Below are positions 5,940-50,020 of a stretch of 64,000 nucleotides of DNA, piece by piece. The notes under the pieces are model-generated. The model was not told the DNA's origin. It worked only from the letters and a program-made list of their open reading frames with translations, and searched no databases. Position numbers and translations under genes: made by a program. The DNA comes from Escherichia coli (GTDB lineage: Bacteria; Pseudomonadota; Gammaproteobacteria; Enterobacterales; Enterobacteriaceae), in NCBI RefSeq assembly GCF_011045215.1, contig NZ_CP049201.1; one strand, written 5' to 3'. The stretch's first letter is position 1. Each line of letters opens with the position of its first letter.

Positions 5940-6059
5940 TTTTCAACGCGTTTGAAGTTCTGGACGGTGCCGGAATAGAATCAAAAATACTTAAGTAGCG
6001 CGCAGGGATAAGAGGGATGGTCCCTTAAAGGGGAGAGCTAATTATCCGGAAGGATTCTG

Positions 6060-12169: not shown

Positions 12170-12385
12170 ATGAAATCCATGGATAAGTTAACAACGGGTG
12201 TCGCCTATGGCACCTCAGCAGGTAGTGCCGGGTACTGGTTTTTACAGTTGCTCGATAAAGTCACGCCCTCACAGTGGGCGGCAATAGGTGTGCTGGGTAG
12301 TCTGGTATTTGGCTTGCTGACGTATCTGACAAACCTTTATTTCAAGATTAAAGAAGATAAGCGTAAGGCTGCGAGAGGTGAATAA
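12170..12385 (+). CDS. Class II pinholin (phage 21 S-like), 71 aa with dual start MKSM
   Basis: Translation [71 protein letters not shown] matches recalled S21. Confidence 0.8.
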
Positions 12386-14184: not shown

Positions 14185-14679
14185 ATGGATCGAGAGTTAA
14201 AAAATCTGACGCTGAATATCAGTCAACTGGCGGCACTGTCAGGTGTACATCGCCAGACTGCTGCGGCAAGGCTGCAAAATCTACCCGTTGCAGGGGGGCA
14301 TGAAAGCAACCTCAAGCTTTATCGGGTGGTTGATATTGTGTCGGCATTTCTGGCATTGCCACCGCCGGTTGCAGAAGGCGAAATGGACGCGCATGAGCGC
14401 AAAGCCTGGTATCAGTCTGAACGTGAGCGTCTTAAGTTCGAACAGGAAACGGCACAACTCATTCCGGCCAGTGATGTCAGACGGGAGTTTGCCATCTGGG
14501 CAAAAGCGGTCGTGCAGGTGCTGGAGACATTACCGGATATTCTGGAACGTGACTGCGGTCTGCAGCCTGCCGCTGTGAGCCGTGTTCAGTCCATTATTGA
14601 TGATCTGCGCGATCAGATAGCCCTGCGGGTGACTGAAGCAGGTGCGGATGATGAGGAGGAATTACAGCAGGAGGAGTAA
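14185..14679 (+). CDS. Terminase small subunit
   Basis: N-terminal HTH-like segment (LNISQLAALSGVHRQTAAARL), acidic C-terminus, immediately upstream of large terminase with overlapping stop/start. Confidence 0.7.
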   Translation: MDRELKNLTLNISQLAALSGVHRQTAAARLQNLPVAGGHESNLKLYRVVDIVSAFLALPPPVAEGEMDAHERKAWYQSERERLKFEQETAQLIPASDVRREFAIWAKAVVQVLETLPDILERDCGLQPAAVSRVQSIIDDLRDQIALRVTEAGADDEEELQQEE

Positions 14680-16781
14680 TGCTGAATCAGGAAACCGCAA
14701 AGGCAGCACGAACCGATTCAGGTTATATCCTTCGCGCACCGAGACGAATGCGGGTTGCTGATGCCGTTGCTCAGTATATGCGGGTGCCCATGGGGGCAGG
14801 GAACTCAGTCCCGTGGGATCCGCTGGTGGCACCGTATGTTATTGAGCCGATGAACTGCCTGGCCTCGCGTGAATACGACGCAGTGATATTTGTTGGCCCG
14901 GCACGAACCGGCAAGACTATCGGCCTGATTGACGGCTGGGTGATTTACAACGTGATTTGCGATCCTGCTGATATGCTGATCATTCAGATGACGGAGGAAA
15001 AAGCCCGCGAACACTCCAAAAAACGACTCGCCAGAACGTTTCGCGTCAGCCCGGAAGTGGTCAGTCGCCTGAGTCCGAACAAAAATGACAACAACGTTTA
15101 TGACAGAACATTCCTTGCTGGTAACTACCTGAAAATCGGCTGGCCGTCAGTCAATATCATGTCCTCATCAGATTATAAATGCGTCGCGCTGACGGATTAT
15201 GACCGTTTTCCGGAAGATATTGATGGCGAGGGGGATGCTTTCTCTCTTGCCTCAAAACGTACCACCACATTTATGTCCAGCGGTATGACGCTGGTGGAGA
15301 GTTCCCCCGGCAGGGATGTGAAGGATGTGAAATGGCGACGGACTTCACCGCATGAGGCTCCACCAACCACGGGGATCCTGTCGCTCTATAACCGTGGTGA
15401 TCGCCGTCGCTGGTACTGGCCCTGTCCACACTGTGGTGAGTATTTTCAGCCCTGCGGCGATGTGGTTGCTGGTTTCCGTGATATTGCCGATCCCGTGCTG
15501 GCAAGTGAGGCGGCTTATATTCAGTGTCCTTCCTGTTCAGGACGGATTATGCCTGAACAAAAACGTGAGCTGAACGGACGTGGGGTCTGGTTGCGGGATG
15601 GTGAATCCATCAATGCGGATGGCAGTCGTTATGGTGATCCCCGACGCTCACGTATTGCGTCATTCTGGATGGAGGGTCCGGCAGCTGCTTACCAGACACT
15701 CTCGCAACTCGTTTACAAACTGCTTACTGCAGAACAGGAATACGAGACAACCGGAAGTGAAGAAACACTCAAGACGGTTATCAATACCGACTGGGGATTA
15801 CCTTATCTTCCCCGCGCCAGCATGGAGCAACGAAAAAGTGAACTGCTTGAGCAGCGGGCAGAGCCAGTTCCTTCCCGCAGTGTGCCGGATGGCGTTAATT
15901 TCCTTGTGGCGACAGTGGATGTGCAGGCGGGACGTCATCGCCGTTTTGTGGTTCAGGTAACGGGCTATGGCAGCCGTGGCGAACGCTGGATTATTGATCG
16001 TTACAACATCACGCAGTCATTGCGCGGTGACAGCGACGGGGAGAGCCAGCGAATTGATCCGGCCAGCTATCCGGAAGACTGGGATGTCCTGCTGACGGAT
16101 GTTTTTCATAAAAGCTGGCCGCTGGCCTCCGATCCTTCTCAACAAATGCGACTGATGGCAATGGCGGTGGACTCCGGCGGTGAAGACGGGGTCACTGATA
16201 ATGCCTATAAATTCTGGCGTCGTTGCCGTCGTGATGGCCTTGGTAAACGTATTTACCTGTTTAAGGGCGACAGCATCCGGCGCGCAAAACTGATCACCCG
16301 TACATTCCCTGATAACACCGGACGAACGGGCCGACGGGCGCAGGCCGCAGGTGATGTGCCGCTCTGGCTTCTTCAGACGGATGCACTGAAAGACCGGGTG
16401 AATAACGCGTTATGGCGTGACTCGCCAGGTCCCGGCTATGTGCATTTCCCTGACTGGCTGGGGAGCTGGTTTTACGACGAACTGACGTATGAAGAGCGGA
16501 GCAGTGACGGGAAATGGAGTAAGCCGGGTCGCGGTGCCAACGAAGCTTTTGACCTGATGGTGTATGCCGAGGCTCTGGTCATTCTGCATGGATACGAAAA
16601 GATCCGCTGGCCGGATGCACCGGAGTGGGCGAGCCGGGAAACCTGGCTGGAGTGTGTCCCGGACAGTACCGAACCGTCATCCTCACCGGAACCGGTATCC
16701 ACGCCTGTTAAAAAACAAAAACGGAAGAAAACAGTAACTGACGATGTTAACCCCTGGCTGACTTCCGGAGGATGGTTATGA
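14679..16781 (+). CDS. Terminase large subunit (GpA-like), 700 aa
   Basis: Walker A-like VGPARTGKT; size and position typical of lambda gpA family. Confidence 0.85.
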   Translation: MLNQETAKAARTDSGYILRAPRRMRVADAVAQYMRVPMGAGNSVPWDPLVAPYVIEPMNCLASREYDAVIFVGPARTGKTIGLIDGWVIYNVICDPADMLIIQMTEEKAREHSKKRLARTFRVSPEVVSRLSPNKNDNNVYDRTFLAGNYLKIGWPSVNIMSSSDYKCVALTDYDRFPEDIDGEGDAFSLASKRTTTFMSSGMTLVESSPGRDVKDVKWRRTSPHEAPPTTGILSLYNRGDRRRWYWPCPHCGEYFQPCGDVVAGFRDIADPVLASEAAYIQCPSCSGRIMPEQKRELNGRGVWLRDGESINADGSRYGDPRRSRIASFWMEGPAAAYQTLSQLVYKLLTAEQEYETTGSEETLKTVINTDWGLPYLPRASMEQRKSELLEQRAEPVPSRSVPDGVNFLVATVDVQAGRHRRFVVQVTGYGSRGERWIIDRYNITQSLRGDSDGESQRIDPASYPEDWDVLLTDVFHKSWPLASDPSQQMRLMAMAVDSGGEDGVTDNAYKFWRRCRRDGLGKRIYLFKGDSIRRAKLITRTFPDNTGRTGRRAQAAGDVPLWLLQTDALKDRVNNALWRDSPGPGYVHFPDWLGSWFYDELTYEERSSDGKWSKPGRGANEAFDLMVYAEALVILHGYEKIRWPDAPEWASRETWLECVPDSTEPSSSPEPVSTPVKKQKRKKTVTDDVNPWLTSGGWL

Positions 16782-16990
16782 ACCAGAATGATATCGAAGC
16801 CATGATTCAGCGTTATACGGAAGCTGAAATGGCGGTGCTGGACGGAAAATCCGTCACCTTTAATGGTCAGCAGATGACCATGGAAAACTTATCTGAGATC
16901 CGGCAGGGACGGCAGGAGTGGGAGCGCCGCCTTGCGGCTCTGATTACACGACGACGGGGGCATCCCGGGTATCGGCTGGCGAGGTTCTGA
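16772..16990 (+). CDS. Head-tail joining protein (gpW-like), 72 aa
   Basis: Small ORF between terminase and portal as lambda W; C-terminal RRRGHPGY resembles lambda W tail. Confidence 0.5.
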   Translation: MVMNQNDIEAMIQRYTEAEMAVLDGKSVTFNGQQMTMENLSEIRQGRQEWERRLAALITRRRGHPGYRLARF

Positions 16991-18498
16991 TGGCAATTCT
17001 TGATGATGTGATTGGCGTTTTTTCACCAGGATGGAAAGCGGCAAGGCTGCGTTCCCGTGCGGTGATCCAGGCTTATGAGGCCGTAAAAACGACGCGGACA
17101 CACAAAGCCCGACGGGAGAACCGAACTGCCGACCAGTTAAGCCAGTACGGGGCCGTGTCGTTACGTGAGCAGGCCCGTTACCTTGATAACAACCACGATC
17201 TGGTTATTGGTGTATTTGACAAGCTGGAAGAACGGGTGGTGGGGAAAAACGGGATTATTGTCGAGCCACATCCGGTATTACGCAATGGGGCCATTGCCCG
17301 TGACCTGGCTGCGGAGATTCGCACCCGATGGAGTGAATGGTCTGTCAGCCCGGAAGTCACCGGGCAGTTTACCCGTCCGATGCTGGAACGTCTGATGCTT
17401 CGTACCTGGCTGCGCGATGGTGAGGTGTTTGCCCAGATGGTTTCCGGGCGCATAAACAGCCTGACGCCTTCTGCCGGTGTTCATTTCTGGCTGGAGGCGC
17501 TCGAGCCGGACTTTATTCCCATGACCAGTGATGAGAGCAACAGGCTGAATCAGGGCGTGTTTGTTGATGACTGGGGGCGTCCCGAAAAATATCTGGTGTA
17601 TAAAAGCCGTCCCGTATCCGGACGGCAGATGGAAACCAAAGAAGTGGATGCAGAGCGAATGCTGCATCTTAAATTTGTTCGCCGTCTGCACCAGATGCGC
17701 GGGACGTCTTTATTGTCCGGTGTGCTGATCCGCCTCAGTGCCCTGAAAGAGTATGAAGATTCTGAGCTGACTGCAGCAAGGATCGCCGCCGCTCTGGGGA
17801 TGTACATCCGGAAAGGCGACGGGCAGAGCTATGAAGCGGATGGTAATGGCAGCAAGGATAAGGAACGCGAGCTTACCATTCAGCCAGGCATTATTTACGA
17901 TGATCTGAAACCCGGCGAAGAAATCGGAATGGTGAAGTCGGATCGCCCAAATCCTAACCTTGAAACTTTTCGTAATGGTCAGTTGCGTGCCGTGGCGGCG
18001 GGCAGTCGTCTGAGTTTTTCCAGTACAGCGCGCAACTATAACGGCACTTACAGCGCCCAGCGTCAGGAGCTGGTTGAATCCACTGATGGCTACCTGATCC
18101 TGCAGGACTGGTTTATTGGTGCCGTCACCCGTCCGATGTATCGTGCCTGGCTGAAACAGGCTGTGGCATCCGGTGTTATCAGGCTACCCCGCGATCTTGA
18201 CCTTTCTTCACTGTATACCGCGGTGTATTCCGGACCGGTGATGCCGTGGATTGACCCTGTTAAGGAGGCTGAGGCCTGGAAAATCCAGATTCGTGGTGGA
18301 GCGGCGACAGAATCAGACTGGGTACGTGCTGGTGGTCGTAATCCGGATGATGTCAAACGTCGGCGCAAGGCCGAAATTGATGAAAACCGCAAGCTGGATC
18401 TGGTATTTGATACCGATCCGGCCAGTGATAAAGGAGGCAGCAGTGCCGCAACGAAACGACAGGAGCCGCAGCACACCGACGACCAGTCCGAAGAATAA
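16990..18498 (+). CDS. Portal protein
   Basis: ATG at 16990 overlaps gpW stop (ATGA); ~500 aa, position after terminase and W. Confidence 0.8.
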   Translation: MAILDDVIGVFSPGWKAARLRSRAVIQAYEAVKTTRTHKARRENRTADQLSQYGAVSLREQARYLDNNHDLVIGVFDKLEERVVGKNGIIVEPHPVLRNGAIARDLAAEIRTRWSEWSVSPEVTGQFTRPMLERLMLRTWLRDGEVFAQMVSGRINSLTPSAGVHFWLEALEPDFIPMTSDESNRLNQGVFVDDWGRPEKYLVYKSRPVSGRQMETKEVDAERMLHLKFVRRLHQMRGTSLLSGVLIRLSALKEYEDSELTAARIAAALGMYIRKGDGQSYEADGNGSKDKERELTIQPGIIYDDLKPGEEIGMVKSDRPNPNLETFRNGQLRAVAAGSRLSFSSTARNYNGTYSAQRQELVESTDGYLILQDWFIGAVTRPMYRAWLKQAVASGVIRLPRDLDLSSLYTAVYSGPVMPWIDPVKEAEAWKIQIRGGAATESDWVRAGGRNPDDVKRRRKAEIDENRKLDLVFDTDPASDKGGSSAATKRQEPQHTDDQSEE

Positions 18499-18511
18499 TT
18501 CCTGGTTCAGG

Positions 18512-20470
18512 ATGCAGGCTGGTCACCAGAGTGACGCGGATATTTATATTTATGACGAGATTGGTTTCTGGGGTGTTACAGCGAAGCAGTTTATCAGTGA
18601 TCTGAATGCACTGGGCGATATCACCCATATTAATCTCCATATTAATTCACCGGGTGGCGATGTCTTTGAAGGCATCGCCATTTTTAATGCACTGAAAACA
18701 CATGGTGCGTCCATTACCGTTTATGTCGACGGTGTGGCGGCGTCAATGGCGTCGGTCATTGCGATGGTGGGAAACCCGGTCATTATGCCGGAAAACACCT
18801 TCATGATGATTCATAAACCATTTGGCTTTACGGGCGGTGATGCGGAGGACATGCGCACCTATGCCGACCTGCTCGATAAAGTTGAGGCGGTTCTGTTACC
18901 CGCTTATGCACAGAAAACCGGGAAAACCACCGATGAAATTGCTGCCATGCTGGCGGATGAGACCTGGATGTCCGGTGCCGAATGTCTGGCACATGGATTT
19001 GCTGATCAGGTAACGCCAGCCGTTAAGGCAATGGCATGTATTCAGTCAAAACGTACAGAGGAATTTAAAAAGATGCCGGAATCCATTCGAAACATGATTA
19101 CTCCGCCACGCAACAGTGCTCCACGCGTACAGGATAATGAACCTGAAGCCTCCCGGACGCCAGTGCAGGCAGCAGCACCCGTGGTGGATGAAAACAGCAT
19201 CCGTGCGCAGGTACTGGCAGAGCAAAAAGCGCGTGTAAACGGTATTAATGATCTGTTTGCCATGTTTGGCGGGCGTTATCAGACGCTGCAGGCTCAGTGT
19301 CTTGCCGATCCTGAATGTTCGCTGGAGCAGGCCCGCGAAAAGCTGTTGAACGAGATGGGGCGCGAGTCCACGCCATCCAATAAAAATACCCCGGCTCATA
19401 TTTATGCCGGTAACGGTAATTTTGTGGGGGACGGGATCCGCCAGGCGCTGATGGCGCGTGCCGGATTTGAAAAAACCGAACGTGATAATGTCTACAACGG
19501 GATGACCCTGCGTGAATATGCCCGTATGTCACTGACTGAACGGGGTATTGGGGTTTCCAGTTATAACCCGATGCAGATGGTCGGTGCGGCGTTCACACAC
19601 AGTACGTCTGACTTCGGTAATATTCTGCTGGATGTTGCGAACAAAGCCATTCTGCAGGGCTGGGAAGATGCCCCTGAAACCTATGAACAGTGGACGCGGA
19701 AAGGTCAGTTGTCTGATTTTAAAATTGCCCATCGTGTGGGTATGGGGGGCTTCAGTGCTCTGCGTCAGGTGCGTGAAGGGGCGGAATATAAATACGTCAC
19801 CACCGGAGATAAACAGGCCACTATTGCACTGGCGACCTATGGCGAGCTGTTCAGTATCACCCGTCAGGCCATTATCAATGATGATCTGAATATGCTGACC
19901 GATGTCCCGATGAAACTGGGCCGTGCGGCGAAATCCACTATTGCCGATCTGGTTTATGCCATTCTGACGTCTAACCCGAAAATCTCCACAGATAATGTAA
20001 GTCTGTTCGATAAAGCGAAACATGCAAACGTACTGGAGAGCGCTGCAATGGACGTGGCATCGCTGGATAAAGCCCGCCAGTTGATGCGCGTTCAGAAAGA
20101 GGGGGAGCGTCATCTGAATATTCGTCCTGCGTTCGTACTGGTACCGACGGCGATGGAGTCTGTTGCTAACCAGGTCATTCGCTCCTCAAGTGTCAAGGGG
20201 GCTGACATTAACGCCGGTATTATTAACCCGGTGAAAGATTTTGCGACCGTTATTGCAGAGCCTCGTCTTGATGATAACAGCCAGACCACCTTCTACCTGG
20301 CTGCGTCAAAAGGCTCCGATACGATTGAAGTGGCTTATCTCAACGGTGTGGATACGCCATATATTGATCAGATGGAGGGCTTCAGTGTGGATGGCGTGAC
20401 AACGAAAGTGCGTATTGACGCCGGTGTCGCGCCAGTTGATCACCGCGGTCTGGTGAAATGTACGGCGTAA
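18512..20470 (+). CDS. Prohead protease (ClpP/S49-like) fused to major capsid protein (Gifsy-2-type head)
   Basis: N-terminal ClpP-like region (IYIYDEIGFWGV...INSPGGDVFEGIAIFNAL...MASVIAMVGN) continuous with ~450 aa capsid-like region. Confidence 0.75.
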   Translation: MQAGHQSDADIYIYDEIGFWGVTAKQFISDLNALGDITHINLHINSPGGDVFEGIAIFNALKTHGASITVYVDGVAASMASVIAMVGNPVIMPENTFMMIHKPFGFTGGDAEDMRTYADLLDKVEAVLLPAYAQKTGKTTDEIAAMLADETWMSGAECLAHGFADQVTPAVKAMACIQSKRTEEFKKMPESIRNMITPPRNSAPRVQDNEPEASRTPVQAAAPVVDENSIRAQVLAEQKARVNGINDLFAMFGGRYQTLQAQCLADPECSLEQAREKLLNEMGRESTPSNKNTPAHIYAGNGNFVGDGIRQALMARAGFEKTERDNVYNGMTLREYARMSLTERGIGVSSYNPMQMVGAAFTHSTSDFGNILLDVANKAILQGWEDAPETYEQWTRKGQLSDFKIAHRVGMGGFSALRQVREGAEYKYVTTGDKQATIALATYGELFSITRQAIINDDLNMLTDVPMKLGRAAKSTIADLVYAILTSNPKISTDNVSLFDKAKHANVLESAAMDVASLDKARQLMRVQKEGERHLNIRPAFVLVPTAMESVANQVIRSSSVKGADINAGIINPVKDFATVIAEPRLDDNSQTTFYLAASKGSDTIEVAYLNGVDTPYIDQMEGFSVDGVTTKVRIDAGVAPVDHRGLVKCTA

Positions 20471-29094: not shown

Positions 29095-32000
29095 ATGGGT
29101 AAAGGCAGCAGTAAGGGGCATACCCCGCGCGAAGCGAAGGACAACCTGAAGTCCACGCAGCTGCTGAGTGTGATCGATGCCATCAGCGAAGGGCCGGTTG
29201 AAGGTCCGGTGGATGGATTAAAAAGCGTGCTGCTGAACAGTACGCCGGTGCTGGACACTGAGGGGAATACCAACATCTCCGGTGTCACGGTGGTGTTCCG
29301 TGCCGGTGAGCAGGAGCAGACACCGCCGGAGGGGTTTGAATCCTCCGGCTCCGAGACGGTGCTGGGTACGGAAGTGAAATATGACACGCCGATCACCCGC
29401 ACCATTACGTCTGCAAACATCGACCGTCTGCGCTTTACCTTCGGCGTGCAGGCACTGGTGGAAACCACCTCAAAGGGGGACCGGAATCCGTCGGAAGTCC
29501 GCCTGCTGGTTCAGATCCAGCGTAATGGTGGCTGGGTGACGGAAAAAGACATCACCATTAAGGGCAAAACCACCTCGCAGTATCTGGCCTCGGTGGTGGT
29601 GGGTAACCTGCCGCCGCGCCCGTTCAATATACGGATGCGCAGGATGACGCCGGACAGCACCACAGACCAGCTGCAGAACAAAACGCTCTGGTCGTCATAC
29701 ACCGAAATCATCGATGTGAAACAGTGCTACCCGAACACGGCACTGGTCGGCGTGCAGGTGGATTCGGAGCAGTTCGGCAGCCAGCAGGTGAGCCGTAATT
29801 ATCATCTGCGCGGGCGCATTCTGCAGGTGCCGTCGAACTATAACCCGCAGACGCGGCAATACAGCGGTATCTGGGACGGAACGTTTAAGCCAGCATACAG
29901 CAACAACATGGCCTGGTGTCTGTGGGATATGCTGACCCATCCGCGCTACGGCATGGGGAAACGTCTTGGTGCGGCGGATGTGGACAAATGGGCGCTGTAT
30001 GTCATCGGCCAGCATTGCGATCAGTCGGTGCCGGACGGTTTTGGCGGCACGGAGCCGCGCATCACCTGTAATGCGTACCTGACCACACAGCGCAAGGCGT
30101 GGGATGTGCTCAGTGATTTCTGCTCTGCGATGCGCTGTATGCCGGTATGGAACGGGCAGACGCTGACGTTCGTGCAGGACCGACCGTCGGATAAGGTGTG
30201 GACCTATAACCGCAGTAATGTGGTGATGCCGGATGATGGTGCGCCGTTCCGCTACAGCTTCAGCGCCCTGAAGGACCGCCATAATGCCGTTGAGGTGAAC
30301 TGGATTGACCCGAATAACGGCTGGGAGACGGCGACAGAGCTTGTGGAGGACACGCAGGCCATTGCCCGTTACGGTCGTAACGTCACGAAGATGGATGCTT
30401 TTGGCTGTACCAGCCGGGGGCAGGCACACCGCGCCGGGCTGTGGCTGATTAAAACAGAACTGCTGGAAACGCAGACCGTGGACTTCAGCGTGGGTGCCGA
30501 AGGGCTTCGCCATGTACCGGGCGATGTCATTGAAATCTGCGATGATGACTATGCCGGTATCCGCACCGGCGGGCGCGTGCTGGCGGTAAACAGCCAGACC
30601 CGGACGCTGACGCTCGACCGTGAAATCACGCTGCCATCTTCCGGCACCACGCTGATAAGCCTGGTTGACGGGCAGGGGAGTCCGGTCAGCGTGGAGGTTC
30701 AGTCCGTCACCGACGGCGTGAAGGTGAAAGTGAGCCGTGTTCCTGACGGCGTTGCTGAATACAGCGTATGGGGGCTGAAGCTGCCGACGTTGCGCCAGCG
30801 CCTGTTCCGCTGCGTGAGTATCCGTGAGAACGACGACGGCACGTATGCCATCACCGCCGTGCAGCATGTACCGGAAAAAGAGGCCATCGTGGATAACGGG
30901 GCGCACTTTGACGGCGACCAGAGCGGCACGGTAAATGGTGTCACGCCGCCAGCGGTGCAGCACCTGACCGCAGAAGTCACCGCAGACAGCGGGGAATACC
31001 AGGTGCTGGCGCGCTGGGACACGCCGAAGGTGGTGAAGGGCGTGAGCTTCCTGCTTCGCCTGACCGTGGCAGCGGATGACGGCCGTGAGCGGCTGGTCAG
31101 CACGGCCCGGACGACGGAAACCACTTACCGCTTCACACAACTGGCTCTGGGGAACTACAGGCTGACAGTCCGGGCAGTAAATGCGTGGGGGCAGCAGGGC
31201 GATCCGGCGTCGGTATCGTTCCGGATTGCCGCACCGGCAGCGCCGTCGCGGATTGAGCTGACGCCGGGCTATTTTCAGATAACCGCCACGCCGCATCTTG
31301 CGGTTTATGACCCGACGGTACAGTTTGAGTTCTGGTTCTCGGAAAAACGGATTGCGGATATCAGGCAGGTTGAAACCAGCGCGCGTTATCTTGGTACGGC
31401 ACTGTACTGGATAGCCGCCAGTATCAATATCAAACCGGGCCATGATTATTATTTTTACGTTCGCAGTGTGAACACCGTTGGCAAATCGGCATTCGTGGAG
31501 GCTGTCGGTCAGCCGAGTGATGATGCATCAGGCTATCTGGATTTTTTCAAAGGCGAGATAGGGAAAACCCATCTGGCTCAGGAGCTGTGGACGCAGATTG
31601 ATAACGGTCAGCTTGCGCCTGACCTGACTGAAATCAGGACGTCCATAACGGATGTCAGCAATGAAATAACACAGACCGTCAATAAGAAACTGGAAGACCA
31701 GAGTGCAGCGATCCAGCAGATACAGAAGGTTCAGGTTGATACAAATAATAACCTGAACAGCATGTGGGCAGTGAAGCTGCAGCAGATGCAGGACGGACGC
31801 CTTTATATTGCGGGTATCGGTGCCGGTATTGAGAACACCCCTGACGGCATGCAGAGTCAGGTGCTGCTGGCAGCAGACAGGATTGCGATGATTAATCCTG
31901 CGAATGGCAACACAAAGCCGATGTTTGTTGGTCAGGGCGATCAGATATTCATGAATGAAGTGTTCCTGAAACGCCTGACGGCCCCCACCATTACCAGCGG

Positions 32001-32592
32001 CGGTAATCCTCCGGCATTTTCCCTGACATCAGACGGGAGACTGACGGCGAAAAATGCGGATATCAGTGGCAGTGTGAATGCGAACTCAGGAACGCTCAAC
32101 AATGTCACGATTAACCAGAACTGTACGATTAAGGGCATGCTGGAGGCGACCCAGGTCAGAGGAGATTTCGTTAAAGCTGTATCAAAAGCCTTCCCGAAAA
32201 AAGTCGGTACGTGGGGTAACACGGAAACACCAAACGGTACGGTTACAGTCACCATCAGCGATGATCATAACTTTGACCGCCAGATTATTATTCCGCCCAT
32301 TATTTTTAACGGTATAGCGTATGACGATCCGGGGAGCGGAAATAACCCAGGAGGCACGCGATACACGGGTTATGGTTTTGAAGTTCGCAAAAACGGCGTA
32401 TTAATCGCATCCAGAGAAACTAAAGGGGCCATTCCCGGTAGTTACAGTGCAGTTATTGATATGCCGAGTGGCAGGGGAAGCGTCACTCTGGAGTTTAAGA
32501 TTTTCCAGAAAGGCAATCAGGGGGCAGGCAATATCACCGACTGTACGGTGATTGTGACCAAAAAAGCCGCTTCCGGCATCAGTATTCGTTGA
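29095..32592 (+). CDS. Tail tip/host specificity protein (lambda J-like), 1165 aa
   Basis: Size, position, fibronectin-like repeats; GGAATGGG RBS context. Confidence 0.9.
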
Positions 32593-32662: not shown

Positions 32663-33262
32663 ATGCGTAAAGTTTGTGCAGCAATTTTGTCCGCAGCCAT
32701 TTGTCTGGCCGTATCCGGTGCGCCTGCATGGGCGTCTGAACATCAGTCCACGCTGAGCGCGGGGTATCTTCATGCCTCGACGAACGTCCCCGGCAGTGAT
32801 GATCTGAACGGGATTAACGTGAAATACCGTTATGAGTTTACGGACACACTGGGGCTGGTGACGTCATTCAGCTATGCAGGAGACAAGAATCGCCAGCTGA
32901 CCCGTTACAGCGATACCCGCTGGCATGAAGATTCCGTTCGTAACCGCTGGTTCAGCGTAATGGCGGGGCCGTCTGTGCGCGTAAATGAATGGTTCAGCGC
33001 GTATGCGATGGCGGGTATGGCTTACAGCCGTGTGTCGACTTTCTCCGGGGATTATCTCCGCGTAACTGACAACAAGGGGAAAACGCACGACGTGCTGACC
33101 GGAAGTGATGACGGTCGCCACAGCAACACGTCTCTGGCGTGGGGAGCTGGCGTGCAGTTTAACCCGACCGAATCCGTGGCCATTGATATTGCTTATGAAG
33201 GCTCCGGCAGTGGCGACTGGCGCACTGACGGTTTCATCGTGGGTGTCGGTTATAAGTTCTGA
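32663..33262 (+). CDS. lom: Lom/Ail-family outer membrane beta-barrel protein
   Basis: Signal peptide (AICLAVSGAPAWA), beta-barrel-like alternating pattern, C-terminal F; position after J as lambda lom. Confidence 0.85.
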   Translation: MRKVCAAILSAAICLAVSGAPAWASEHQSTLSAGYLHASTNVPGSDDLNGINVKYRYEFTDTLGLVTSFSYAGDKNRQLTRYSDTRWHEDSVRNRWFSVMAGPSVRVNEWFSAYAMAGMAYSRVSTFSGDYLRVTDNKGKTHDVLTGSDDGRHSNTSLAWGAGVQFNPTESVAIDIAYEGSGSGDWRTDGFIVGVGYKF

Positions 33263-33317: not shown

Positions 33318-33326
33318 GGGGTGAAT

Positions 33327-36300
33327 ATGGCAGTAAAGATTTCAGGTGTACTGAAAGACGGCACAGGAAAACCGGTACAGAACTGCACAATCCAGCTGAA
33401 AGCAAAACGTAACAGCACCGCGGTGGTGGTGAACACGCTGGCCTCAGAAAATCCGGATGAAGCCGGGCGTTACAGCATGGACGTTGAGTACGGTCAGTAC
33501 AGCGTTATTCTGTTGGTGGAAGGATTCCCGCCGTCACATGCCGGGACCATCACCGTGTATGAAGATTCCCGACCCGGTACGCTGAATGATTTTCTCGGTG
33601 CCATGACGGAGGATGATGCCCGTCCGGAGGCTCTGCGCCGTTTTGAACTGATGGTGGAAGAGGTGGCGCGTAACGCGTCCGCGGTGGCACAGAACACGGC
33701 AGCCGCGAAGAAGTCAGCCGGCGATGCCGGCACATCTGCCCGTGAGGCGGCAACCCATGCGACTGATGCTGCAGGCTCAGCACGCGCAGCCAGCACGTCA
33801 GCCGGACAGGCCGCTTCGTCGGCTCAGTCAGCGTCTTCCAGCGCAGGAACGGCATCAACAAAGGCCACTGAAGCATCAAAAAGTGCTGCCGCTGCAGAGT
33901 CCTCAAAAAGCGCGGCAGCTACCAGTGCCAGTGCCGCGAAAACGTCAGAAACGAATGCTGCAGCGTCACAACAATCAGCAGCCACTTCTGCATCCACCGC
34001 GACCACGAAAGCGTCAGAAGCTGCCACCTCAGCCCGGGATGCGTCGGCTTCAAAAGAGGCGGCAAAATCATCAGAAACGAACGCATCCTCGAGCGCCAGT
34101 AGCGCATCTTCCTCGGCAACAGCGGCAGGAAATTCCGCGAAGGCGGCAAAAACGTCAGAGACGAACGCCAGGTCTTCTGAAACGGCAGCGGGACAGAGCG
34201 CCTCGGCTGCGGCAGGCTCAAAAACAGCGGCTGCGTCGTCTGCCAGTGCAGCGTCAACAAGTGCCGGGCAGGCCTCAGCCAGTGCCACCGCCGCCGGAAA
34301 ATCGGCAGAAAGCGCCGCATCGTCTGCTTCAACAGCCACAACGAAGGCTGGCGAAGCCACTGAACAGGCCAGCGCAGCAGCGAGGTCTGCTTCCGCAGCG
34401 AAGACATCCGAAACGAACGCGAAAGCGTCGGAAACCAGCGCAGAATCCTCAAAAACGGCTGCCGCATCGTCAGCCAGTTCGGCGGCGTCATCGGCATCAT
34501 CGGCGTCTGCTTCAAAAGATGAGGCGACCAGACAAGCGTCAGCAGCGAAGAGCAGCGCCACGACGGCATCCACGAAGGCGACAGAGGCTGCTGGCAGTGC
34601 GACGGCGGCAGCTCAGAGCAAAAGTACGGCGGAATCCGCGGCAACGCGCGCCGAGACAGCAGCTAAACGGGCAGAGGATATTGCATCCGCCGTGGCGCTT
34701 GAGGATGCAAGTACGACGAAAAAGGGGATAGTACAGCTCAGCAGTGCGACCAACAGTACGTCTGAAACGCTGGCGGCAACGCCAAAGGCAGTAAAATCAG
34801 CCTATGACAATGCAGAGAAACGTCTGCAGAAAGACCAGAACGGCGCTGATATACCCGATAAGGGATGCTTCCTGAACAACATTAACGCGGTCAGTAAAAC
34901 AGACTTTGCTGATAAGCGTGGTATGCGTTATGTGCGGGTTAACGCTCCTGCAGGTGCAACATCTGGAAAATATTACCCTGTTGTTGTTATGCGTTCTGCT
35001 GGCTCAGTAAGCGAACTGGCATCAAGAGTCATTATCACCACGGCAACGCGAACCGCAGGCGATCCGATGAATAACTGCGAGTTTAACGGATTTGTTATGC
35101 CTGGTGGCTGGACTGACAGGGGGCGTTATGCTTATGGCATGTTCTGGCAATATCAAAACAATGAACGAGCCATTCACTCAATAATGATGAGTAATAAGGG
35201 CGATGATTTGCGCTCTGTGTTCTATGTTGATGGCGCTGCTTTCCCTGTTTTTGCGTTTATTGAAGATGGCCTGTCAATATCCGCACCTGGTGCTGATCTC
35301 GTTGTTAATGATACGACCTATAAGTTTGGGGCAACAAATCCGGCGACTGAATGTATCGCGGCGGACGTTATCCTTGATTTTAAGAGTGGGCGTGGTTTTT
35401 ATGAGTCTCATTCGTTAATCGTTAACGATAACTTGTCGTGCAAAAAACTTTTTGCCACAGACGAAATTGTAGCGCGTGGTGGTAATCAGATTCGAATGAT
35501 AGGTGGGGAGTATGGGGCATTATGGCGTAATGATGGCGCTAAAACTTACCTGCTGCTTACCAATCAAGGTGATGTTTATGGTGGCTGGAATACATTAAGA
35601 CCGTTTGCTATTGATAACGCAACCGGCGAACTGGTTATTGGAACCAAACTGTCCGCAAGTCTGAACGGTAATGCATTAACAGCAACAAAGCTGCAAACGC
35701 CAAGACGGGTTTCTGGTGTTGAGTTTGATGGTTCCAAAGATATTACTTTAACCGCCGCGCATGTGGCTGCTTTTGCCAGAAGGGCAACGGATACATATGC
35801 CGATGCGGATGGTGGCGTTCCCTGGAATGCCGAATCAGGCGCTTATAATGTCACCCGCTCTGGCGACAGCTATATTCTGGTTAACTTCTATACCGGAGTC
35901 GGAAGTTGCCGGACCCTGCAGATGAAGGCGCATTACAGAAATGGTGGTCTGTTCTACCGTTCTTCAAGAGACGGTTATGGTTTTGAGGAAGACTGGGCAG
36001 AAGTTTATACCTCGAAAAATCTTCCACCAGAAAGCTACCCAGTCGGCGCACCAATCCCGTGGCCATCAGATACCGTTCCGTCTGGTTATGCCCAGATGCA
36101 GGGGCAGACTTTTGACAAATCTGCCTACCCGAAACTTGCAGCCGCTTATCCGTCAGGCGTGATCCCTGATATGCGTGGCTGGACGATTAAGGGCAAGCCC
36201 GCCAGTGGTCGTGCCGTATTGTCTCAGGAACAGGACGGCATTAAATCGCATACCCACAGCGCCAGCGCATCCAGTACGGATTTGGGTACGAAAACCACAT

Positions 36301-36728
36301 CGTCGTTTGATTACGGAACCAAATCCACGAATAACACCGGGGCGCATACCCATAGTATTAGCGGGACTGCAAATAGTGCCGGTGCGCACCAACACAAGAG
36401 TTCCGGTGCATTTGGTGGCACGAACACGAGCATTTTTCCTAATGGTTATACTGCGATTTCAAATCCAAGCGCGGGGATTATGAGCACAACAAGCGGTACT
36501 GGCCAGACTCGTAATGCAGGGAAGACATCATCAGATGGTGCTCATACCCACTCACTGTCCGGCACTGCTGCAAGCGCAGGTGCACACGCACATACTGTCG
36601 GTATTGGTGCTCATACGCACTCCGTTGCGATTGGTTCACATGGACACACCATCACCGTTAACGCTGCTGGTAACGCGGAAAACACCGTCAAAAACATCGC
36701 ATTTAACTATATTGTGAGGCTTGCATAA
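33327..36728 (+). CDS. stf: Side tail fibre (lambda Stf-like), ~1134 aa with long Ala/Ser/Thr-rich repeat region and His-rich C-terminal repeats
   Basis: N-terminus [26 protein letters not shown] and C-terminus [31 protein letters not shown] match recalled lambda Stf; repeats SAA.TSETNA and GAHTHS. Confidence 0.85.
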
Positions 36729-37309
36729 TGGCATTCAGAATGAGTGAACAACCACGGACCATAAAAATTTATAATCTGCTGGCCGGAACTAATGAATTTA
36801 TTGGTGAAGGTGACGCATATATTCCACCTCATACAGGTCTGCCAGCAAACAGTACCGATATTGCACCGCCAGATATTCCGGCAGGCTTCGTGGCTGTTTT
36901 CAACAGTGATGAGGCATCGTGGCATCTTGTTGAAGACCATCGGGGTAAAACGGTTTATGACGTGGCTTCCGGCGACGCGTTATTTATTTCTGAACTCGGC
37001 TTATTACCGGAAAATGTCACCTGGTTATCCCCGGAAGGGGAGTTTCAGAAGTGGAACGGCACAGCCTGGGTGAAAGATGCAGAAGCAGAAAAACTGTTCC
37101 GGATCCGGGAGGCGGAAGAAACAAAAAACAACCTGATGCAGGTAGCCAGTGAGCATATTGCGCCACTTCAGGATGCTGTAGATCTGGAAATCGCAACGGA
37201 GGAAGAAAACTCGTTGCTGGAAGCCTGGAAGAAGTATCGGGTGTTGCTGAACCGTGTTGATACATCAACTGCACCTGATATTGAGTGGCCTGTAATACCA
37301 GAAGTTTAA
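36728..37309 (+). CDS. tfa: Tail fibre assembly protein (lambda Tfa-like)
   Basis: 193 aa; TAATG overlap with stf; followed by hairpin agcccgc...gcgggct at 37316..37345. Confidence 0.8.
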
Positions 37310-37428
37310 AATAAAAGCCCGCTTAAAATATCGCGGGCTTCGAAATATAAATGTATTTTCAGAGGCTAGAGCTTAGGATATCTCAGCGGCAATTAACTTA
37401 TGAGGGATAGCTAAATACCAGAAGATAA

Positions 37429-38319
37429 TTAGTTTTTACTATTTATCTTTGTTTGTGGTTCTCCTTCAGCAAGCTCAGCGCCAGTGACAGGATTGATGTC
37501 TTCATGGGATTTCAACCTTGTTGCCATAGCTTTTATCATAGCTTCTTGCTTGGTCGAAAGATTTATCGAGGCCTTCCCATCCCCACCGTCAACCGCTGGA
37601 ACTGGATCGGAAATATAGTCAAAGTTTTCATCACTGTTCCAACTACCTCTGACGTCTTCACCTTCTGACATGTTGTAATATACGTTTTTGTATTTCTCAA
37701 TTGGTGGTAATTTTCCTGGTGGAAAGGTGTTGCGAATTGAATGTAATGCTTTTTCAAATGAAAGCATGTGTGCTGCTTCCCTGGTCATTAAAAATGCCAG
37801 AGTGTCTTTTACTCCAGGATCATCAGTAACATTAATGAGACGTTCGTAAATGATCTTTGCCCGAGCTTCAGCTGCAATATTTGAACGAAGATCGGCCGTG
37901 ACTTCGCCAATAGTATCAACATAAGCTGCAGTCCAGGGTACTCCAGCTGAATTAGTTAATGCTGGGCCTCCTCCGTAGAGGAGAGAAGTTATATGGCTGT
38001 CATTGCCATTTTGAGTTAAGGAACGGTAAAGCTCAGCTTCATTCTCAGTTCCTTCAGCAAGTGCTCCTTTTGCACCTTTGTTGAGCATACCAACAAGAGA
38101 ACCAATAATTTCGAGATGACTTAGTTCTTCTGTTGCTATGTCCATCAGCATATCCCTTCGGCCTGCATCTTCATCACTTAAGCCTTGAGTGAAGTATCGG
38201 CATGCTGCTGCAAGCTCACCCTGTGGCCCGCCGAATTGTTCTAAAAGTAGATTAGCCAAGCCTGGGTTTGGCTCACTTACACGTACTGTATATTGAAGTT
38301 TTTTCACGTGTCTAAACAT
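37429..38319 (-). CDS. katN: Manganese catalase (KatN-like), 296 aa
   Basis: Mn-catalase ferritin-like features (EELSHLEI, TREAAHM); last gene of a yciGFE-katN-type operon. Confidence 0.8.
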   Translation of the reverse strand: MFRHVKKLQYTVRVSEPNPGLANLLLEQFGGPQGELAAACRYFTQGLSDEDAGRRDMLMDIATEELSHLEIIGSLVGMLNKGAKGALAEGTENEAELYRSLTQNGNDSHITSLLYGGGPALTNSAGVPWTAAYVDTIGEVTADLRSNIAAEARAKIIYERLINVTDDPGVKDTLAFLMTREAAHMLSFEKALHSIRNTFPPGKLPPIEKYKNVYYNMSEGEDVRGSWNSDENFDYISDPVPAVDGGDGKASINLSTKQEAMIKAMATRLKSHEDINPVTGAELAEGEPQTKINSKN

Positions 38320-38337
38320 AATGCCTCCTCAAAAGAA

Positions 38338-38844
38338 TTATTTTTTGGCTTCAACTCCATCAATTTCAGATCTGACCATGAATTGCTCAGTGGTGTCAGG
38401 AATATGGTTAAGAAGCCATTCAGCCATTTGTTTTTCTTCATTAAGAATTGCTTCAATAATGGGTACTGAAGCTGTATCACCCGCATTTTTGGCTGCTGCG
38501 AGAAGAGATGTGTAGCACGCAATTTCAAATTGTTCGAAAACATAGCCACTGATCGAACCTTTGACAATTTCATCAGATGGAAAAATTCCACCAATGGATT
38601 GCCCAAACGCGGCCATTTTACTCATAGAGTCTTTAATGACAGAGCGCGAAATATTATTACGATCAAGTATGCTTTCAAGCTGTGAAAGCTGGTTCTTTGT
38701 TTCGCTAATGTGCTGCTCAATTCTGGAACGTAACTCTGGATAGTTTTCTATCCGGCTGGCCATAGACTCAAGCATTTTTTCAGCTTGTTTCTCCATCGCA
38801 TGTGCATCACGAAGCCAGTCATGGTAATGTTCAATTCTATTCAT
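38338..38844 (-). CDS. yciE: YciE-like ferritin-like (DUF892) stress protein, 168 aa
   Basis: Length and organisation as recalled Salmonella yciGFE-katN operon. Confidence 0.75.
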   Translation of the reverse strand: MNRIEHYHDWLRDAHAMEKQAEKMLESMASRIENYPELRSRIEQHISETKNQLSQLESILDRNNISRSVIKDSMSKMAAFGQSIGGIFPSDEIVKGSISGYVFEQFEIACYTSLLAAAKNAGDTASVPIIEAILNEEKQMAEWLLNHIPDTTEQFMVRSEIDGVEAKK

Positions 38845-38880
38845 AATCTGTTTATCCTAAAAGAAATTGAAGTCTATAGT

Positions 38881-39387
38881 TCAGGAGTTATCCTGAGCTT
38901 TTTTATTAACGTTATTAAATGCCAGGTCTGTTAATTTGACATCAGTAGCTTTTTCCTCTTCCAGTGTTTCTTTCAGGAGTTTAGCCGCTTTTTTATATCC
39001 TAATTGCTCAGCGAGTGTTACCAAAGTGCCATAACTGGCAATTTCATAGTGCTCTACTTTTTGTGCTGCAGCAATCAATGCAGCATCACGTACTTCATTT
39101 TTATCAGTGCTTTCAATTACCTCATTCGCCTCTTCGATAAGTCCTTCCATTGCGGCACACTTAATTCTTTTCAATTTAAGACCATCTTCAGAATCAACAA
39201 TCTGATCGATGCGTTCAATTTGACCATGTGTCTCATCAAGATGTGACTGAAAAGCAGCGGTTAATTTATCACTATATGCAGAGCGACTAAGTTTAGACAG
39301 TGCCTTTGTTAGTTGTTTCTCAGCGCTGTATGTATCCGATAATAAGTGGATGAAGATATCTTCAACAGATTTAATTTGCATAATCAC
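38881..39387 (-). CDS. yciF: YciF-like ferritin-like (DUF892) stress protein, 168 aa
   Basis: Paralogue of the adjacent gene; same size. Confidence 0.75.
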   Translation of the reverse strand: MIMQIKSVEDIFIHLLSDTYSAEKQLTKALSKLSRSAYSDKLTAAFQSHLDETHGQIERIDQIVDSEDGLKLKRIKCAAMEGLIEEANEVIESTDKNEVRDAALIAAAQKVEHYEIASYGTLVTLAEQLGYKKAAKLLKETLEEEKATDVKLTDLAFNNVNKKAQDNS

Positions 39388-39459
39388 TCCAGAGTTTTCA
39401 CTGCGAGCCCGTAGGCTCGCAGTTAGCTTCAGTTATTCACGAATGTAGGGGATGATAAA

Positions 39460-39642
39460 TTAAGAGTCAGATTTACGGCCGCCACCATGGCTATTCTGAC
39501 CACCTTTTTTCCCTGCTTCTGATGCTCTTTGTGGATCGTTTTTAAAATTACCGCCACTATGTTGGCCGCCTTTACGACCAGCGTCAGAAGCTTTTTGTCG
39601 ATCTTCAGCGAAATTACCTGCACCGCCACGATGTTCGGTCAT
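39460..39642 (-). CDS. yciG: KGG-repeat stress protein (YciG-like), 60 aa
   Basis: Translation contains repeated KGG/GG motifs (RKGGQHSGG, KKGGQNSHGGG). Confidence 0.75.
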   Translation of the reverse strand: MTEHRGGAGNFAEDRQKASDAGRKGGQHSGGNFKNDPQRASEAGKKGGQNSHGGGRKSDS

Positions 39643-39723
39643 ATCATTTCTCCTCTGATTTTCAAATTGTAAATAACATGTGCCTTGTCAGCACCCAATT
39701 AACTTTAGTAACAAATAAGAAAG

Positions 39724-39770
39724 TGTCAAATAACAGATTGGTATGCGCATTTTGATGTGACAAATAACAG
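39724..39770. repeat. Direct repeat TGTCAAATAACAG / TGACAAATAACAG upstream of yciG-like operon (candidate regulator binding sites)
   Basis: Two near-identical 13-mers 33 bp apart, ~80-130 bp upstream of the operon start in an AT-rich leader. Confidence 0.3.
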
Positions 39771-40377
39771 TTGTAAAAAATATGTGCTCAGTGAGTATAA
39801 TTTATTGATATCTTAGTGATTAATGGGAAGTTTAGGTTGTAACTCAAAAGATTAATATACCCAAATTTACATTTATATATTATTTGATGCTCCTGGTGTT
39901 GTTTTTCTCAATAAGAATACTCTGTAAAATAATTCAATCGTAAGATGGTGGTTATTCATATTTTTGAGATACTTCCTAATAGAGTCCATCCCTTGAATAA
40001 ATAATTGTTTTAAAATTTCGTCTAACAAACTAATTACAAAAACTTTTATATAACCCAAAGAATCATGATTATTCTTAATCGTCAAGATTTGACCGTAAAA
40101 ATTTAAGCACAGAAAATTGTGTGCAAGGATGTGTTGTTCAGTCTGTCGAACTTTCGATAGTTTGAGTATTAAATGATTTCCAGCCGTTATTGATTTTACG
40201 CGTAATTCCATAAAAAACTTATCTGTTGGAGAGTTATTTGGGGCATATATGGGACAGAAATCGGCCCCAGATAGACAGTGAGATCGATCTCAGGACGCTT
40301 TTGAAAAAATGCAACTATCTGAAAAAACGTAGAAAACGCCAAGGAACCCACAGGATGTGAAAAAACACCTGTGAATT

Positions 40378-41661
40378 ATGGATTTCCAGTTATATTCGCT
40401 CGGCGCAGCGTTGGTGTTTCATGAAATATTTTTTCCTGAATCATCAACGGCAATGGCGTTAATTCTGGCAATGGGAACCTACGGTGCAGGTTATGTCGCG
40501 CGTATTGTCGGAGCATTTATTTTCGGCAAAATGGGCGACAGAATAGGGCGTAAAAAAGTGCTCTTTATTACCATCACCATGATGGGGATCTGTACCACCT
40601 TAATTGGTGTGTTACCGACCTATGCACAGATTGGTGTTTTTGCACCCATCTTGCTGGTGACGCTGCGTATTATTCAGGGATTGGGTGCAGGTGCGGAAAT
40701 TTCCGGTGCCGGTACGATGCTGGCGGAATATGCGCCAAAAGGTAAGCGCGGAATTATCTCCTCATTTGTGGCTATGGGAACTAACTGCGGAACCTTAAGC
40801 GCAACGGCAATCTGGGCCTTTATGTTCTTCATTCTCAGTAAAGAGGAACTGCTGGCGTGGGGATGGCGTATACCGTTCCTGGCGAGCGTTGTCGTGATGG
40901 TCTTTGCTATCTGGTTGCGTATGAATCTGAAAGAAAGCCCGGTCTTTGAGAAGGTTAACGACAGCAACCAACCAACAGCAAAACCTGCACCTGCTGGTAG
41001 CATGTTCCAGAGCAAATCCTTCTGGCTGGCAACAGGGCTGCGTTTTGGTCAGGCAGGTAACTCCGGATTAATTCAGACTTTCCTTGCAGGCTATTTAGTG
41101 CAGACGTTATTGTTTAACAAAGCAATTCCAACAGATGCATTGATGATCAGTTCGATTCTCGGCTTTATGACCATTCCGTTCCTTGGTTGGTTATCCGATA
41201 AAATTGGTCGCCGGATCCCGTATATTATTATGAATACCTCCGCGATTGTGCTGGCATGGCCAATGCTTTCTATCATCGTAGATAAAAGCTATGCCCCGAG
41301 CACCATTATGGTTGCACTGATTGTGATTCATAACAGTGCGGTGCTGGGATTATTTGCTCTGGAAAATATTACCATGGCAGAAATGTTTGGTTGTAAAAAC
41401 CGCTTTACCCGGATGGCTATTTCAAAAGAAATTGGTGGTCTTATCGCTTCCGGTTTTGGTCCTATCCTGGCAGGTATTTTCTGCACCATGACGGAATCCT
41501 GGTATCCGATCGCCATTATGATCATGGCATATTCAGTGATTGGTTTAATCTCTGCGCTGAAAATGCCAGAAGTGAAAGACCGTGATTTAAGTGCGCTGGA
41601 AGACGCTGCGGAAGATCAACCGCGTGTTGTAAGAGCTGCGCAACCTTCCAGAAGTCTGTAA
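40378..41661 (+). pseudogene. ydfJ: ydfJ, MFS transporter, N-terminally truncated by prophage insertion (3' fragment)
   Basis: 427-aa ORF begins directly at the GxxFFP region; first TM helix (~40 aa) of the ProP/ShiA-type fold is missing; in-frame stop immediately upstream. Confidence 0.65.
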
Positions 41662-41749
41662 ATCCTCAATCCCTTCTCTTACCGGAGAGGGGATTTTTAT
41701 CCATATAACAAAACATGTAGCTTGCCATATTTAAATTTAAGGAATTGTT

Positions 41750-49705: not shown

Positions 49706-49744
49706 GCTCCGTTTAACATTCATTGAGAAAACTGATGCTACTGT

Positions 49745-49850
49745 GTCAACGATCCGTTATCAGTGCAGGAAAATGCCTGTTAGCGTAAAAGCAAAACACA
49801 AATCTATCCATGCAAGCATTCACCGCCGGTTTACTGGCGGTTTTTTTTTC
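49745..49850 (+). ncRNA. mgrR: Candidate MgrR-like sRNA ending in terminator 49821..49850
   Basis: Intergenic region downstream of dgcZ, divergent context with mgtS; strong hairpin caccgccgg-ttta-ctggcggt followed by nine T; recalled MgrR lies at this locus. Boundaries approximate. Confidence 0.35.
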
Positions 49851-49924
49851 GCCGTCATAAAAATCAGGCCCCTTGTACACAACTGTAACAAGGGGCCGGT
49901 TAGGTGAGGGATTATCTCCGTTCA

Positions 49925-50020
49925 TTAGTCATCCCATTTGTGGCTGAAATACGCGGCCAGAAAACCAGAAAATAAAATTATTCCCAGTACGGCCATAAAA
50001 ACATTCATATTACCCAGCAT
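49925..50020 (-). CDS. mgtS: Small membrane protein MgtS (YneM), 31 aa
   Basis: Reverse-strand translation MLGNMNVFMAVLGIILFSGFLAAYFSHKWDD; terminator hairpin ggccccttgt...acaaggggcc at 49866..49900 on minus strand. Confidence 0.65.
   Translation of the reverse strand: MLGNMNVFMAVLGIILFSGFLAAYFSHKWDD

Follow-up and report, generated by a model that had tools for sequence, protein, structure and literature searches.

The right-hand end of a prophage in Escherichia coli, at which phage DNA gives way to the chromosome inside the transporter gene ydfJ, raises the question of how the gene came to be broken there, and of whether the element beside it is a remnant like the Qin prophage of K-12 or a complete phage. 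The analysis covered a 64-kb stretch of DNA (hereafter the window), and the features recognised in it are collected in Table 1. Positions 40372–40389 very probably represent the attR of an mEp460/Qin-type lambdoid phage, produced by tyrosine-integrase-mediated insertion at codon 29 of ydfJ. The junction itself is an ordinary, already published ydfJ/Qin att site, both common and annotated.

On the host side, ydfJ resumes at 40378 with ATG GAT TTC CAG, as a sequence-only reading of this DNA had proposed, and the in-frame stop which that reading saw just upstream is the TGA at 40372–40374 (the two codons before the ATG are TGA ATT). The product of this open reading frame (ydfJ') begins MDFQLYSLGAALVF and differs at one of 427 residues from residues 29–455 of YdfJ in strain S56, where the protein is intact at 455 aa. 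The missing 28 codons (84 nt) were not found in the window. The break falls in a conserved E-F-M-D-F stretch, and the Pfam MFS_1 profile, which aligned to intact YdfJ from residue 21 (profile position 2), aligned to the truncated ORF from profile position 33. The 427-aa ORF is thus not a full-length YdfJ, which has 455 residues, an intact TM1 and an MFS_1 match from its start. The first transmembrane helix had been described as lacking; it is not wholly absent, since residues 1–28, and with them the start of TM1, are missing but some 18 helix residues (29–46) remain. Hydropathy and a low-confidence AlphaFold model suggest that TM1 is cut roughly in half, with the first helix ending near residue 46; the single-sequence model (pLDDT 41) is too poor to define TM1 and was used for its helix/loop pattern only. 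A PDB sequence search with YdfJ returned no homologue. Downstream of the 3' end of ydfJ' lie ydfI, ydfZ, rspR (ydfH) and ydfG, in the order seen in K-12, inverted. No tRNA or tmRNA was present in the window as a possible att target.

The att sites were compared as a quartet, in which the window contributed attR only and the other end was supplied by the sister genomes 55989 and Ec-U11. AttB reads ...cttgaattt ATGGATTTC cagtta... and attP reads ...ctgtgaatt ATGGATTTC aagagt...; attR (in the window, K-12 and 55989) consists of the left side of attP, the core and the right side of attB, and attL (in K-12, 55989 and Ec-U11) of the left side of attB, the core and the right side of attP. This four-way comparison placed the crossover inside ATGGATTTC (40378–40386), and because the flanking indel and mismatch segregate, strand exchange must fall within these 9 bp. 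AttB and attP are exactly alike over 11 bp, TTATGGATTTC, an 11-mer with a single occurrence within the 64-kb window; the direct-repeat core which was to be sought by aligning both junctions was thereby obtained, with the other junction taken from the sister genomes. When one indel and one mismatch are allowed, the site extends to an imperfect att, TGAATT(T)ATGGATTTC(C/A)AG (40372–40389), which is 18 bp long in attP and 19 bp in attB. A published study describes ydfJ as a common prophage integration locus with an att sequence of 18 or 19 bp (PMC8112680). The att described here fits that site, with which, judged by its length only, it presumably also agrees in sequence.

In 55989 and Ec-U11, the interval between integrase and rspB reads ATGACAATAGAA...GAATTT ATGGATTTC AAGAGT, in which codons 1–28 of ydfJ run into phage DNA. 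Of 5426 complete E. coli genomes, 2011 carried without interruption a 600-nt attB reconstructed by joining the host side of the sister attL to the host side of the window at ATGGATTTC; in these, the annotated ydfJ beside rspB encodes all 455 aa. The attP reconstructed from the phage side of the window and the integrase side was unbroken, at 97% identity, in the genomes of four free phages (HannyBb, PhiR42_1, Tritos and mEp460_ev081). The junction of the arm with ydfJ' was carried by 3159 of the 5426 complete genomes (58%). The K-12 prophage Qin (Kim; NC_000913.3, 1632277–1652745) has the same att core and breaks ydfJ at the same nucleotides, at codon 29, and so interrupts the gene in the same way, as the sequence-only reading had stated: its annotation overlaps the 1284-nt ydfJ CDS by the same 9 bp, and ynfP (36 aa) consists of the orphaned 5' end of ydfJ and phage sequence. 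Qin is known to shorten YdfJ by 28 codons (PMC6379469).

That the junction arose by rearrangement (deletion, inversion or homologous recombination between prophages) and not by site-specific integration is highly improbable. Inversions between ompW and ydfJ prophages have been documented in STEC (PMC8112680), and the right end of the element is mosaic, with a module joint at ~40152–40198. The break, however, lies exactly at the att core, with a canonical attP arm on its phage side and unaltered ydfJ on its host side, and its position is identical in thousands of genomes. In the site-specific integration which very probably took place, recombination of attP with attB within the common ATGGATTTC joined the phage arm at 40152–40377 to the 3' 427 codons of ydfJ, and the ydfJ promoter with its first 28 codons would be expected at attL, beside integrase and rspB, ~5 kb past the left edge of the window. 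The absence of the 84-nt 5' fragment from the window agrees with the earlier expectation that attL lies past the left edge and, by analogy with Ec-U11 and 55989, ~4.9 kb of the prophage would be missing there.

Table 1. Features of the prophage, its cargo operon and the interrupted host gene (positions in the window)
Feature	Position	Strand	Basis
Lambdoid (mEp460/Qin-like) prophage, visible part, from the early-left operon (ydfA/truncated ydfB) to attR	1–40386	+	
DicA-type repressor, 135 aa, HTH_3	1027–1434	-	57.6% aa identity to DicA of Ec-U11
DicC/Cro-like regulator	1515–1742	+	84% aa identity to DicC
Replication module: YdaT-like, O-like replication and DUF977 proteins, full length	1726–3635	+	98–100% aa identity to Ec-U11
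sok RNA, hokD, rem	5519–6311	+	Rem 95%, HokD 100% aa identity; sok by Rfam
Q antiterminator, 119 aa	7710–8069	+	Pfam Phage_antitermQ, 5e-44
Lysis cassette, complete	12170–13346	+	Full-length alignment
Holin	12170–12385	+	
Endolysin	12385–12882	+	
Rz	12867–13346	+	
Rz1 lipoprotein ORF, embedded in Rz	13099–13284	+	
Late region, from the cos-proximal end (~14160)	14160–37309	+	tblastn; phage identity
terS	14185–14679	+	
terL	14679–16781	+	
Portal	16990–18498	+	
Protease/capsid	18443–20470	+	
Tail genes through gpI	ending 29034	+	
J	29095–32592	+	
lom	32663–33262	+	
Side tail fibre	33321–36728	+	
tfa	36728–37309	+	
Cargo operon yciG-yciF-yciE-katN	37429–39642	-	Pfam; K-12 YciE/F/G identity
Mn catalase (katN)	37429–38319	-	Pfam
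DUF892 protein	38338–38844	-	Pfam
DUF892 protein	38881–39387	-	Pfam
KGG protein (yciG)	39460–39642	-	Pfam
AT-rich cargo operon leader/promoter region, 29% GC	39643–40151	-	Part of the cargo module
Phage arm of attR (P arm of attP), 226 bp, 38% GC	40152–40377	+	Homology to Qin and free phages
att core	40376–40386	+	Four-way att comparison; K-12 Qin annotated boundary on the same 9 bp
ydfJ' (3' 427 codons of an MHS-family MFS transporter gene, without promoter and first 28 codons)	40378–41661	+	

Immediately to the left of the core, the phage arm was 100% identical to that of 55989 and Ec-U11 and 90% identical to those of K-12 Qin and mEp460_ev081, and it was contiguous with core and integrase in the free phages HannyBb, PhiR42_1, Tritos and mEp460_ev081. 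Homology to K-12 begins abruptly at 40152 and continues to 43664 with 97.9% identity. Within the arm lies an invariant block, TTTGGGGCATATATGGGACAGAAAT(A/C)GGCCCCAGATAGACA, with the repeats TGGGGCA (40239), TGGGACA (40250) and an inverted TGGGGCC (40263); repeats like TGGGGCA also occur on the integrase side of attP (ATGGGGCATGGTTGGGGCA), and the block and its repeats are candidate arm-type integrase sites. An end of the phage at ~40200, the point at which cargo homology with other genomes stops, was considered and dropped, since K-12 and the free phages identify 40152–40377 as the attP arm. The cargo and arm homologies overlap by ~47 bp (~40152–40198), which marks a mosaic joint there.

The region 39650–40400 contains no gene of its own. 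Two open reading frames, at 39873–40211 (112 aa, minus strand) and 40226–40360 (44 aa), had no Pfam or PHROG match, were left unannotated by PGAP in 55989 and Ec-U11, and were rejected as spurious. A search of the whole window with Rfam at gathering thresholds returned nothing in 39400–40400 and no DicF; the only matches (sok, IS009 and STnc560) all lay outside that interval. In a promoter and terminator scan of 39300–40600, promoter-like sites were no commoner than in shuffled sequence, and a single candidate cargo promoter was identified on the minus strand.

The remainder of the sequence up to the arm is cargo and phage. As had been claimed, everything left of the junction (1–40386) is one or the other; inwards from its right end lie the attP arm, the cargo leader, the cargo operon and the tail-fibre genes. 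The cargo proteins YciG, YciF and YciE shared 93%, ~80% (range from 79%) and 88% aa identity, respectively, with their K-12 counterparts, and the four-gene operon adjoins the phage tail-fibre genes, identifying it as a prophage-borne yciGFE-katN. Its position, after the tail-fibre assembly gene and before the att arm, is the slot held by pinQ/ydfK/ynfT in Qin and mEp460. The same module, 97% identical up to ~40198, was found in strain A20, near zinT, and in strain N96, at the lambda site beside ybhB/bioA; both copies also lie at the right end of a prophage. An operon of this kind is carried by CP-933X of EDL933, and KatN there is a Mn catalase activated by RpoS/OxyR and repressed by H-NS (PMC5363993). 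By gene order and protein families, the window operon resembles Z1921–Z1924 of EHEC EDL933 (CP-933X) and the Salmonella operon, which have the same four-gene order and the same protein families; the EDL933 and window operons are both prophage-borne, the window copy lying inside a phage at ydfJ.

Further to the left, the window begins inside the early-left operon, with ydfB truncated at 600 and homology to Ec-U11 starting at 601. An immunity region of DicA/DicC type with the Rem antirepressor and hokD was present, and the late genes followed the lambda-like order terS-terL-portal-protease/capsid-tail-J-lom-stf-tfa, each at full length. In tblastn searches, the annotated non-pseudogene late proteins of Ec-U11 or 55989 all aligned end to end, without interruption, to the window (holin, endolysin, Rz, terS, terL, W-like, portal, protease/capsid and head-tail connectors, together with Z, U, V, G, T, tape measure, M, L, K, I, J, Lom and the tail-fibre N-terminus). 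The lysis, head and tail set which had been called complete-looking is therefore, within the window and against these sister prophage proteins, full length throughout. Genes additional to those of mEp460 and its relatives comprise a NUDIX/HAD pair, a low-GC two-gene insert, on which PADLOC returned no match, and a DNA methyltransferase, besides the cargo operon. By analogy with the sister prophages, the ~4.9 kb beyond the left edge would be expected to hold dicB, ydfD, exonuclease, xis, int and attL.

The relation to the Qin family, suggested earlier, was borne out by a shared att arm, tail-fibre end, hokD-rem-ydfU segment, dicA/dicC-type immunity region and holin. Nucleotide identity between Qin and the window was 85–86% in dicA/dicC, 92% in hokD-rem-ydfU, 86% in the holin, 95.5% at the tail-fibre end (stfQ C-terminus and tfaQ) and 90% in the att arm. 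Qin, however, is a 20.5-kb remnant devoid of head and tail genes, with an IS2 insertion and a pseudogenised intQ, whereas the window set is full length, and the place of yciGFE-katN in the window is taken in Qin by pinQ-ydfK-ynfT. The phage mEp460_ev081 was collinear with the window and, from base 1 of its record, matched it at 97.2% nucleotide identity through 17.4 kb of head and tail genes; because that base aligns at 14160, this position is taken as the cos-proximal end. Likeness extended to the replication module (97.8%), hok-rem-ydfU (93.8%) and the att arm. Among mEp460 and its relatives (Ayreon, phi458, cdtI, HannyBb, Tritos and PhiR42_1), attP arm, core and integrase type were the same, but this group differs from the window in the repressor allele, Q antiterminator, endolysin/Rz type and central tail-fibre region. 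The late region was 96–98% identical to those of phi458, vB_EcoS-569R4, Ayreon, mEp460 and cdtI phage, of which mEp460, phi458, Ayreon and cdtI are plaque-forming. The phage is thus a mosaic, with morphogenesis, replication and att modules like those of mEp460, and a different repressor, Q antiterminator and endolysin.

Megablast with 37300–41700 recovered the same contiguous cargo-arm-ydfJ junction in only five of the 5426 complete E. coli genomes (100181, 200088, 55989, Ec-U11 and fS25a), at 98.9–99.2% identity. With no record above 99.2% identity, and with five genomes sharing its right-end arrangement, the prophage joins the mEp460/Qin group as a new mosaic member. The prophages of 55989 and Ec-U11, which occupy this site and are collinear with that of the window, end on their other side with excisionase and integrase, and attL lies next to rspB. 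The sister prophages at ydfJ (the 55989 and Ec-U11 group) carry a different insert in the slot after Q, and a deletion in that of Ec-U11 has removed part of J and of the tail fibre. Compared with 55989 and Ec-U11, phage-side DNA was 99.3–99.7% identical, while adjoining host DNA was 98.1–98.5% identical (a host-flank divergence of 1.5–1.9%); at the junction itself, the arm was 100% identical and ydfJ' differed at 22–23 synonymous sites. The greater likeness of the phage side suggests that the phage entered hosts which had already diverged, as a recently mobile lineage would, and its spread probably postdates the split of the host lineages.

An alternative is a cryptic, grounded prophage of the Qin kind, unable to excise or grow, despite its complete-looking late region, through a lesion outside the window (int, xis or early-left genes) or a subtle point defect inside it. 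We consider such a defect possible, though unlikely. Prophages at ydfJ are often remnants, K-12 Qin included; decay occurs within the lineage, as the J/tail-fibre deletion in its closest sister, Ec-U11, indicates; in 55989 an IS lies in rspB, next to the prophage; the window ydfB is truncated at 600, where homology to Ec-U11 ends; and some ydfJ prophage integrases are IS-inactivated (PMC8112680). Against this, the visible 40 kb, in which inactivating lesions had been named as grounds for abandoning the idea of an intact phage, showed no essential gene with a truncation or frameshift; the phage side is better conserved than the host flank; and plaque-forming phages have near-identical modules. 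We therefore favour an apparently complete phage, for which inducibility, excision and virion formation are potential properties.

As for the signal, the repressor matched only HTH/repressor-type Pfam families and no peptidase family, and a search for LexA boxes (CTGT-N8-ACAG) found none near rem or the repressor and one chance-level match inside the methyltransferase gene. With a DicA-type repressor of this kind and no LexA box before rem, mitomycin C is no obvious inducer, and induction by DNA damage was not assumed. In Qin, the antirepressor Rem counters DicA; mEp460_ev081, a functional temperate phage with dicB, dicAC and rem, keeps the DicA/Rem pair (PMC10448788). A corresponding pairing of repressor and Rem is predicted for the window prophage, whose repressor is only 57.6% identical to DicA.

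Conservation of ydfJ' was viewed across eight occupied genomes (the window, K-12, 55989, Ec-U11, XH1815, GPEC1031, B19 and O157:H7 2159), a small sample with unresolved branches. The gene was an intact 427-codon ORF in all eight, including K-12 with its decayed Qin, and differed from an intact allele by 0–2 aa changes and 9–22 nt changes. Summed over pairs, differences amounted to 380 synonymous versus 35 non-synonymous (pN/pS ~0.03 or lower); for the neighbouring gene ydfI, dN/dS was 0.11–0.15. The ATG of ydfJ' is supplied by the att core itself.

It is doubtful that ydfJ' escaped inactivation, that is, that a 427-aa transporter is made from Met29 and used, the transcript coming from the phage arm or the cargo. 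The unbroken ORF and the excess of synonymous differences in the eight genomes would fit such a product, as would the present RefSeq annotation of K-12 YdfJ as a CDS, no longer a pseudogene, and the change in ydfJ RNA upon DicC induction (PMC11430063). However, ydfJ' has lost its own promoter and half of TM1, the Met29 ATG is not preceded by any Shine-Dalgarno-like sequence, and the conservation of ydfJ' would follow just as well from recent or repeated insertion of phages into intact alleles and from recombination. The wider proposal that the prophage does not simply kill ydfJ, whether because the shortened transporter is expressed and selected or because phage turnover is too fast for a long interruption, appears similarly improbable. 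The conservation of ydfJ' may reflect rapid turnover of phages at the site, or recombination with intact alleles; retained function of the shortened YdfJ is the less likely alternative.

Taken at the level of the locus, the att core of a known integration hotspot (ydfJ, the Qin site) has been placed precisely in an E. coli genome, which is of little importance beyond annotation, where it supplies the correct prophage boundaries (right end 40386, core 40376–40386). The yciGFE-katN oxidative-stress operon is recognised as phage cargo in this genome. The occupant of the Qin site here is an apparently complete mEp460-like phage and not a Qin-type remnant, and this non-defective-looking relative of Qin is a candidate for studies of DicA/Rem-type induction.

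The ydfJ 3′ fragment, interrupted by the prophage, was free of decay in all eight genomes occupied at this site (the window and seven others, K-12 among them). Compared with an intact allele, the fragment carried 9–22 nucleotide differences in these genomes, yet only 0–2 amino acid differences, and pairwise totals amounted to 380 synonymous and 35 non-synonymous changes. Constraint on the fragment was stronger than on the adjacent ydfI. When the chromosomal flank (41700–64000) was compared with the 5426 complete E. coli genomes in RefSeq, identity reached 99.2% at most.

Features of the prophage and its chromosomal flank (window positions unless a locus is named; L007 and L008 are cargo-module loci of other strains)
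Feature	Position	Strand	Remarks
205-aa ORF	126–743	minus	phrog_35040, function unknown
NUDIX hydrolase (212 aa) and HAD hydrolase (214 aa)	3832–5138		downstream of replication genes
Two-gene insert	8062–10451	minus	low GC (31–34%); flanked by Q antiterminator and methyltransferase/lysis genes
IS009	37071–37269		Rfam match; within 3′ end of tail-fibre assembly gene
yciGFE-katN operon with AT-rich leader	37429–40198; L007 3629–6397; L008 3630–6402		lambdoid prophages
ydfJ 3′ fragment	40378–41661
STnc560 Hfq-binding sRNA	49717–49931		Rfam match; chromosomal flank

At the left edge of the window, homology to the sister prophage of Ec-U11 ended at position 600, within ydfB, and the 205-aa ORF at this point joins a ydfB-like N-terminus (phrog_2061) to unrelated sequence. 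An Rfam search across the window found no DicF RNA. The NUDIX hydrolase gave a weak PADLOC match to PDC-S07 (7e-10); in place of the NUDIX/HAD pair the functional free phage mEp460_ev081 has an unlike 450-aa ORF.

The low-GC insert encodes an NA37/YejK-like nucleoid-associated protein of 388 aa and a 408-aa product in which no Pfam domain was found. Both components of the NCBIfam ‘DS1’ anti-phage proteins were matched by this pair, with scores of 98 bits for DS1_1 and 101 bits for DS1_2; the curated cut-offs are far higher, at 330 and 315, respectively. PADLOC returned no match for the insert. In sister prophages the equivalent slot is occupied by DUF262, AIPR, AAA-ATPase, Sll1717-type ATPase or LAPAL proteins. 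The slot after the Q antiterminator looks like a variable defence hotspot, the occupant here being a putative, distant DS1-like pair.

At the right end of the element, yciGFE-katN and its leader were 97% identical among lambdoid prophages at three distinct att sites, namely ydfJ in the window, a site near zinT in strain A20 and, in strain N96, the lambda site close to ybhB/bioA. Operon and AT-rich leader together form a portable module of prophage right ends.
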